The notes under the pieces were generated by a model that worked only from the letters and a program-made list of their open reading frames with translations, did no database searches and was not told the origin of the DNA. A stretch of 43,825 nucleotides of DNA from Klebsiella phage phi1_146001: the sequence record PP889457.1. One strand, written 5' to 3'. A program made the translations under genes and the position numbers. Below, in pieces: positions 6,791 through 6,820 of this stretch. Numbering within the stretch: position 1 is the stretch's first letter; the number at the start of each line of letters is the position of its first letter.

Positions 6791-6820
6791 CCTATAGCAT
6801 CCTATGGGGTGCTATGTGAA
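6791..6820 (+). promoter_or_regulatory. Conserved intergenic hairpin element, copy 1 (CCTATAGCATCCTATGGGGTGCTATGTGAA)
   Basis: 8-bp stem ATAGCATC/GGTGCTAT (includes one G-U pair) with 6-nt loop. 27 of 30 nt identical to copy 2, with a compensatory A-U to G-C change in the stem. Confidence 0.6.

Follow-up and report, generated by a model that had tools for sequence, protein, structure and literature searches.

Which function should be assigned to the short hairpins that recur between the early genes of Klebsiella phage phi1_146001, and do they act as DNA or as RNA? The window analyzed here, i.e. the whole stretch of 43,825 nucleotides (PP889457.1), is by its sequence a Drulisvirus genome, that of a KP34-like Klebsiella podophage: the approximately 10-kb stretch around the hairpins shares about 89% identity with KPR2, VLC3, KpV475 and some 250 other records, nearly all of which belong to Drulisvirus (KP34-like podophages, Autographiviridae, Slopekvirinae). 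The window comprises the whole genome in a circularly permuted form, with all genes directed rightward and a non-coding left end at about 5200-6500. The motif was listed before by Eriksson 2015 (PMC4411677, Table 3) with two sites per genome and the consensus AGCCTATAGCGTCCTACGGGGCGCTATGTGAA as a "putative phage promoter", strand nicks being the alternative mentioned there. These two sites are hairpins 1 and 2 of the window. That report covers neither the lower stems nor the copies in the leader and after the helicase gene, nor the occurrence in other genera. The literature search retrieved neither a paper in which RNase III is connected with the motif, with KP34 or with phiKMV-like phages nor transcriptome, cleavage or transcript-end data for a drulisvirus, and one apparent match (PMC11633184) was a primer only. 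With respect to the literature searched, the element is already published, and what is new concerns the lower stems, copies 3 and 4, the distribution over lineages and the RNase III reading.

The hairpins are located in an operon transcribed from host promoters. A sigma-70 promoter, at which the hairpin-carrying early transcript starts, was identified at 6188..6216 (+ strand, TTGACA-17-TAGATT) and a second one at 6271-6299 (+ strand, TTGACAAGTTATGATTCACTGAGTAACTT); both sequences are listed as host promoters in Table 3 of PMC4411677. All four hairpins discussed below are intergenic, lie on the + strand and follow these early promoters. By matching to the defined KP34 promoters, strong promoters of the phage RNA polymerase type were found at 5762..5777 (left-end copy, TGATGTTACCGGAGTA), 26974-26989 and 38975-38990, and a weak one at 26922-26941 inside the RNA polymerase gene, all on the + strand.

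The three copies reported in an earlier note on this DNA were recovered on the + strand at 6791-6820 (CCTATAGCATCCTATGGGGTGCTATGTGAA), 7574-7603 (CCTATAGCGTCCTACGGGGCGCTATGTGAA) and 15121-15151 (CCTAGCGCCTTCTCTGAGGGCGCTATGTAGG), and copies 1 and 2 indeed differ at exactly three positions, two of which convert an A-U pair into G-C while the third is a loop base. Shuffling of the window gave an expectation of 0.00 chance occurrences for the degenerate 30-mer; GCTATGT, the short flank, occurs 10 times compared to 7.3 expected and is by itself not enriched. The distance from the stop codon to the core, given as 4 to 7 nt, was measured as 6, 7 and 4 nt for copies 1, 2 and 3, and the stop codons themselves lie within the lower stems (TAA 6782-6784, TAG 7564-7566 and TGA 15114-15116). 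The spacing of 20 to 45 nt to the next ribosome binding site (RBS) applies to copy 1 (~30 nt), but is too large for copy 2 (~14 nt) and copy 3 (~6 nt). No U-tract follows any of the copies, as had been noted, and none of them was called by a terminator scan.

Folding with 10-12 nt of flanking sequence per side uncovered lower stems that had been missed before. The full element consists of a lower stem of 6-9 bp, a 4x4 internal region, an upper stem of 10 bp and a loop of 3-4 nt, and the lower stems of hairpins 1, 2 and 3 are unrelated in sequence, yet all of them pair. Hairpin 1 (6783..6826, + strand, core 6791-6820), defined by its fold and a match of 70 bits to our family covariance model R1, has the lower stem AAUUAC/GUAAUU overlapping the stop codon TAA, an internal region with the 5' side AG-C-C and the 3' side U-G-AA, and an upper stem of 10 bp (UAUAGCAUCC/GGGUGCUAUG) with two G·U pairs below the loop UAUG. 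The same internal region is found in hairpin 2 (7563..7612, + strand, core 7574-7603; fold and R1 match of 74.5 bits), which combines the lower stem CUAGU-A-GCA/UGC-A-ACUAG (CUAGUAGCA/UGCAACUAG) enclosing the stop codon TAG with the upper stem UAUAGCGUCC/GGGCGCUAUG and the loop UACG. Hairpin 3 (15112..15157, + strand, core 15121-15151), recognized by its fold and termed type B, carries the stop codon TGA within the lower stem GUGACUU/AGGU-A-CAC (3' strand AGGUACAC); a C/U mismatch, a C-G pair and a second C/U mismatch form its internal region, followed by an upper stem of 10 bp (UAGCGCCUUC/GAGGGCGCUA) and a loop of 3 nt. It ends one base 5' of the AGGAGG RBS (15158-15163) of the next gene (ATG 15169). 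The mismatches are conserved: type A has a 2x2 AG/AA and a 1x1 C/U, and type B has two of the 1x1 kind.

A fourth, diverged member of the family, hairpin 0 (6501..6555, + strand), lies between the host promoters and the first early gene (ATG 6569), in whose 5' leader it is contained. It was found as a weak match of R1 (6498-6558, E = 1.5) and folds at -24.4 kcal/mol into a lower stem of 8 bp (AAGGUUAA/UUAACUUU), a 2x2 internal loop and an upper stem of approximately 11 bp (UUAGCGUCCU.../...AGGGCGUUAA) with a variable apical part. Both stems are kept in its 16 distinct orthologous versions, and the apical part ranges from a triloop to a long insertion. Model R1, which was built from type-A copies, did not find type B at E <= 10, so that the three copies are too diverse for a single tight family at the sequence level; what links hairpins 0 and 3 to the family is the architecture and part of the core only. 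The Rfam covariance models matched nowhere in the window at the gathering score, and positions 6400-7700 gave no match at E <= 10.

Several lines of evidence indicate that selection acts on these elements as RNA. On the + strand, hairpins 1, 2 and 3 fold at -17.4, -26.3 and -23.6 kcal/mol, corresponding to z = -3.5, -4.9 and -4.3 against shuffles, and the folds of the - strand are clearly weaker, as C·A takes the place of two conserved G·U pairs there. For the comparative analysis, 61 drulisvirus loci with 132 copies, 93 of them distinct including flanks, were retrieved by anchoring on the helicase gene; this set replaced a scan of viral contigs with the loose pattern CCTATAGN{12,18}CTATGTG, which had mostly delivered chance matches. 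An ungapped alignment of the 52 distinct type-A copies contains 20 invariant positions, namely the upper-stem base together with the internal region, while the columns of the lower stem and the apex vary. The freedom of the apical loop argues against proteins that read a loop.

Within these 52 copies, 90% of the cells of the 20-pair structure are paired compared to 75% after column shuffling and 25-44% in slid controls, 169 doubly changed cells were observed vs 71 in shuffled alignments, and the covariation score is 0.354 vs 0.128, with 0 of 500 shuffles reaching the observed values, although many of these changes separate paralogues, so that few events are counted many times. Independent compensatory changes were seen, among others, in the lower stems GGUUAAU/AUUAACC of an extra copy in L123 and L142, UAAUGGUA/UACCGUUA in L161 and UAGUUAC/GUAACUA in L134, as well as in the upper stem, where U-A is replaced by C-G in L178, the most distant drulisvirus, and C-G by U-A in L169. 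At least ten unrelated lower-stem sequences surround one invariant core. In type B, 42 nt are invariant in 30 distinct versions and the loop triplet alone is free; this type thus provides conservation and no covariation. A set of 30 sequences from across the lineages showed 91% of pairs formed vs 75%, with compensatory changes in 12 pairs. Only the sense RNA can form the G·U pairs; on the other strand, the invariant U·G would be a C·A mismatch. Selection on RNA structure rather than primary sequence, as proposed in the earlier note from copies 1 and 2, is well supported by the sense-strand folds and by the covariation in the 52 copies and in four lineages, and in related phages the stem proved to be both conserved and covarying.

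The motif extends beyond the genus Drulisvirus. With a 52-nt query it was found in 298 phage records, the hosts of which are all Enterobacterales (Klebsiella, Pectobacterium, Escherichia, Kosakonia, Cronobacter, Dickeya, Enterobacter and Pantoea). An identical 32-nt core is shared by Drulisvirus, the Bonnellvirus members Kosakonia phage Kc261 and Escherichia phage smaasur, and Cronobacter phage Peggy; it is slightly changed in PhiM1 and PPWS1 (Corkvirinae) and in Arno160 (Melnykvirinae); each of these six phages outside Drulisvirus has its own, different and complementary lower stem. A core scan of one genome per bacterial species resulted in two matches, both of them chance occurrences outside any hairpin, so that the motif is phage-specific and not the copy of a host RNase III site.

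Hairpins of the same shape occupy most early intergenic gaps in Kc261, smaasur, PhiM1, PPWS1 and Peggy. The motif of the window is the first hairpin of this row in Kc261 and smaasur, directly following the first listed early gene, which in smaasur is the SAMase gene. One hairpin per genome of these two phages exhibits the T7 consensus CTCAAG...CTTTATG, a pattern that otherwise picks out five T7 sites; it is absent from the window and from the 61 drulisvirus loci, where the one match to a loose pattern (L178:9309) does not carry the consensus. A model built only from seven T7 sites matched several of the relatives' intergenic hairpins with E = 8e-6 to 0.03. T7-like hairpins are located in Kc261 (L185) at 1053-1102, 1392-1441, 1747-1788, 2769-2820, 4049-4080, 4346-4394, 5811-5863 and 24547-24597, and in smaasur (L186) at 4582-4633, 4980-5029, 5309-5357 and 5662-5713; one T7-like hairpin of Bonnellvirus follows directly 3' of the major capsid gene, and none of them is annotated in the records. 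Bonnellvirus, the Corkvirinae phages PhiM1 and PPWS1, and Peggy share architecture and placement with the window, with one member per genome carrying the core of the window. They possess several sequence classes of hairpins including the T7 consensus, whereas the window contains this class and two diverged relatives only.

The punctuation of the T7 early mRNA by RNase III is textbook knowledge. Dunn and Studier reportedly described the sites R0.3, R0.5, R1, R1.1, R1.3, R4.7 and R18.5 in 1983, and cleavage is said to take place at CCUUUAU^GAU. We folded T7 around ten RNase III sites, the positions of which, not annotated in the RefSeq record, we take to be those given by Dunn and Studier in 1983, and aligned seven of them into a consensus with a lower stem of 8 bp, a 4x5 internal loop, an upper stem of 10 bp, a loop of 3-6 nt and ten covarying pairs. 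The window resembles T7 in that its sense-strand hairpins are placed between the genes of a polycistronic early RNA, combine a conserved internal loop and upper-stem base with a free apex and lower stem, and can include a stop codon in the 5' strand of the lower stem, as does the TGA of T7 gene 0.4 (1431-1433) at R0.5. Hairpin 0 is found between the early promoters and gene 1, as is R0.3, and the first two pairs beside the internal loop are A-U, U-A or U·G in both phages. E. coli RNase III is blocked when the proximal box contains G-C pairs (PMC3867540), a rule that the A/U pairs beside the internal loop in the window and in T7 would fit. According to the same work, RNase III binds a helix of about 22 bp with a distal box about 11 bp from the cut; the helix of the window adds up to 20-23 positions (6-9 in the lower stem, 4 in the internal region and 10 in the upper stem) in agreement with this length, and the internal region is 10-12 bp away from the apical loop.

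The window differs from T7 in its core, which reads CCUAUAGC...GCUAUGUGAA instead of CUCAAGG...CCUUUAUGAU, in a 4x4 internal region, possibly with a C-G pair, where T7 has 4x5, and in having four sites only, all of them upstream of the RNA polymerase gene and none in the late RNA. When both strands of the window were searched with the T7-site model, hairpin 2 (16.8 bits, E = 0.21) and hairpin 1 (13.2 bits, E = 1.7) were the best two matches, neither of them significant. Given these E values and the fact that the same model did not report the Kc261 copy of the motif, the ranking is in part due to the lower stem of hairpin 2, which resembles the T7 sites by chance. The alignment to the model places CUAUGUGAA on T7 CCUUUAUGA. 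All 52 type-A copies have U·G, A-U, U-A and A-U as the four pairs beside the internal region. In type B only the first two are A/U pairs, as in T7, and the third and fourth are G-C; the register depends on the cut site, and these G-C pairs could act as an antideterminant depending on where the true cut is made. The reading of the earlier note as candidate RNase III sites is thus partly supported, namely by T7 architecture, placement and the row shared with T7-consensus hairpins in relatives, but not by the match to the T7 model, which is weak.

A conserved and covarying family of sense-strand hairpins with a T7-RNase-III-like shape is present at gene junctions of a host-transcribed operon. We hypothesize here that these hairpins serve as sites at which host RNase III processes and stabilizes the polycistronic early and middle mRNA, a reading that we consider on balance probable. 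By analogy with T7, binding and cleavage by RNase III as well as a cut position on the 3' side of the internal region would be expected. The host promoters at 6188 and 6271, and possibly the phage promoter at 5762 as well, give rise to the rightward early/middle transcript, in which each hairpin forms an irregular helix of approximately 20-23 bp, i.e. two turns, that host RNase III would bind. Since mismatches interrupt the target site, we propose that only the 3' strand of the internal region would be cut. The alignment to the T7 model predicts the zone of this single-strand cleavage at 6817..6820 in hairpin 1 (+ strand, GCUAUGU^GAA) and the equivalent zones at 7600-7603 and 15149-15151 in hairpins 2 and 3 (+ strand). 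The upstream message would then end in a stable hairpin of 10-12 bp as a block to 3' exonucleases, and the beginning of the downstream cistron would lie between a few and approximately 30 nt in front of its RBS; discrete, separately stable mRNAs resembling the T7 early RNAs would result. It speaks against such a role that the 20 invariant core positions, identical across genera, exceed the known needs of RNase III and that the core does not match the T7 consensus.

Natural variants reveal that the repeats recombine. In L151 (1243-1294) and L140 (4286-4337), a single chimeric hairpin joins the 5' flank of copy 1 to the 3' flank of copy 2, with deletion of the two genes between the copies and an unpaired lower stem, and in L123 (1533/1621) and L142 (3667/3759) an extra hairpin with its own lower stem follows approximately 90 nt after copy 1. 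Chimeras and extra copies together imply recombination of the repeats with each other. Given the unpaired lower stem of the chimeras, the full helix is not essential, which counts against the RNase III reading, although the T7 RNase III sites are not essential either. A shuffling of gene cassettes by wholesale exchange was considered and rejected, as the segment between copies 1 and 2 is covered to 80-100% by the version of the window in 29 other genomes. The PeSL elements of T4-type phages, an early promoter combined with stem-loop repeats, reportedly mediate a modular shuffling of genes (said to be described by Arbiol, Comeau and Krisch in 2010). Repeated intergenic stem-loops among small early genes, the recombination of which leads to deletions and extra copies, are common to both systems. 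However, the hairpins of the window lack an associated promoter and the segment between their copies is mostly conserved among the 30 genomes, so that shuffling looks like a side effect rather than the function.

Among the explanations other than RNase III processing, a role at the DNA level, be it as phage promoter, as site of phiKMV-like strand nicks or as a signal for recombination or replication, appears very doubtful, despite the recombination between copies and the publication of the motif as a putative promoter with the nick alternative. A PCR template with the motif gave rise to no RNA with purified KP34 RNA polymerase in vitro (Lu 2019, PMC6834552), and the real KP34 promoters were defined in that study as T(A/G)ATGTTACAGGAGTA, together with a weak promoter within the gene of the polymerase. 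Their counterparts in the window at 5762, 26974, 38975 and 26922 are unrelated in sequence to the hairpin motif; the lack of a transcript in vitro and these promoters elsewhere rule out the promoter reading. The strand-nick consensus of the phiKMV group is CGACNNNNNCCTACTCCGG; at 3 mismatches it matches the window eight times and none of the matches is located at a hairpin. Moreover, the presence of G·U pairs and the covariation in the lower stems speak for a fold of the single-stranded sense strand, and the mostly conserved segment between the copies argues against wholesale exchange of cassettes. It is extremely improbable that the hairpins are attenuators or terminators of the host RNA polymerase, although they contain GC pairs and are intergenic in a host-transcribed operon. 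The attenuator alternative of the earlier note is not supported, because the 3' flanks GUGAAGUAAUU, GUGAAUGCAAC and GUAGGUACAC contain no U-tract; essential replication genes and the gene for the phage RNA polymerase are situated downstream of the hairpins, and the one clear intrinsic terminator of the genome, at about 31878-31917, is quite different (GCCCCTGGTGCC...GGCACCAGGGGC, then T8).

The remaining explanations accept an RNA element and differ in what acts on it. Barriers to 3' exonucleases, stabilizers or guides for enzymes such as RNase E in an A/U-rich spacer would function independently of RNase III and set the relative stability of neighboring cistrons, which we regard as unlikely. 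Stable, covarying sense-strand hairpins directly after stop codons and the A/U-rich unpaired spacers following hairpins 1 and 2 are consistent with this idea, as are the natural chimeras, the missing lower stem of which fits a function of the upper stem only. It does not account, however, for more than ten versions of the lower stem that are unrelated in sequence and yet complementary, for an internal region without variation, or for the occurrence together with T7-consensus hairpins in relatives. Another possibility, rather improbable in our view, is a specialized 32-nt RNA cassette that would be exchanged horizontally between at least four lineages of Autographiviridae of Enterobacterales (Drulisvirus, Bonnellvirus, Corkvirinae, and Wanjuvirus with the unclassified Peggy), with its copies serving as recombination joints, and that, being more than a generic RNase III substrate, would be read by a conserved phage-encoded factor or tune RNase III to a regulated single-strand cut; if this were true, the joints would add or delete early genes. 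We consider it distinctly unlikely that a phage RNA-binding protein uses the core (AG-C-C UAUAGC...GCUAUG U-G-AA) as its operator to control translation, decay or antitermination of early genes; such a protein could also modulate RNase III at the hairpins. The invariance of 20 core positions in 52 distinct copies, the identity of the 32-nt core in Drulisvirus, Bonnellvirus and Peggy despite different flanks, and an invariant G·U pair at the junction of helix and internal loop would be expected of such an operator. On the other hand, no candidate protein emerged, the families of the flanking genes are of unknown function, the apical loop varies freely, the T7 RNase III sites are equally conserved in their core without a phage factor, and hairpins 0 and 3 share the architecture and only part of the core.

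The value of the RNase III reading, which would not surprise a specialist, lies in the correction of a widely inherited annotation. Several hundred deposited drulisvirus genomes contain the motif, and the papers on them may have inherited the interpretation as phage promoter, a function that failed its sole experimental test and for which no replacement has been proposed yet. A reassignment to RNA processing would provide a testable transcript map of the early region for phages under development for Klebsiella therapy and for RNA synthesis with the KP34 polymerase. It also suggests that T7-style punctuation of early mRNA by RNase III reaches the phiKMV-like branch in enteric hosts. In genome engineering, the hairpins should be handled with care, as they may set the expression of flanking genes and recombine with each other.

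Further observations were made in the non-coding left end and in the vicinity of hairpins 2 and 3. The strong KP34-type promoter copies of the window all read TTACCGGAGTA, as opposed to TTACAGGAGTA in KP34 itself. Reverse-complementing their 3' ends gives CCTACTCCGG, which is identical to the 3' half of the nick consensus of phiKMV-like Pseudomonas phages; this half matches the minus strand at 5770-5779 and 38983-38992. The region 5121-6026, approximately 900 nt in length, accommodates 14 of the 32 CTAGTG hexamers of the window, nine of them on the + strand between 5335 and 5651, while their number over the whole window is at chance level. A run of G12 at about 5310-5321 and very stable local folds are also present there, and this region may be related to the genome ends or to packaging. 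Short mechanical ORFs of 40 aa cross hairpin 2 (7490-7612 and 7603-7725), and many GenBank records place a "hypothetical protein" under it, which may represent either the end of a real upstream gene or an ORF called through a structured spacer. An additional ORF of 115 aa (14769-15116, PHROG of unknown function), also found in a few relatives (L122, L125, L129 and L168), is inserted between the helicase gene and hairpin 3. In most genomes the stop codon of the helicase gene itself lies within the lower stem of hairpin 3, and GTGACTT with its TGA stop is kept with or without the 115-aa ORF.
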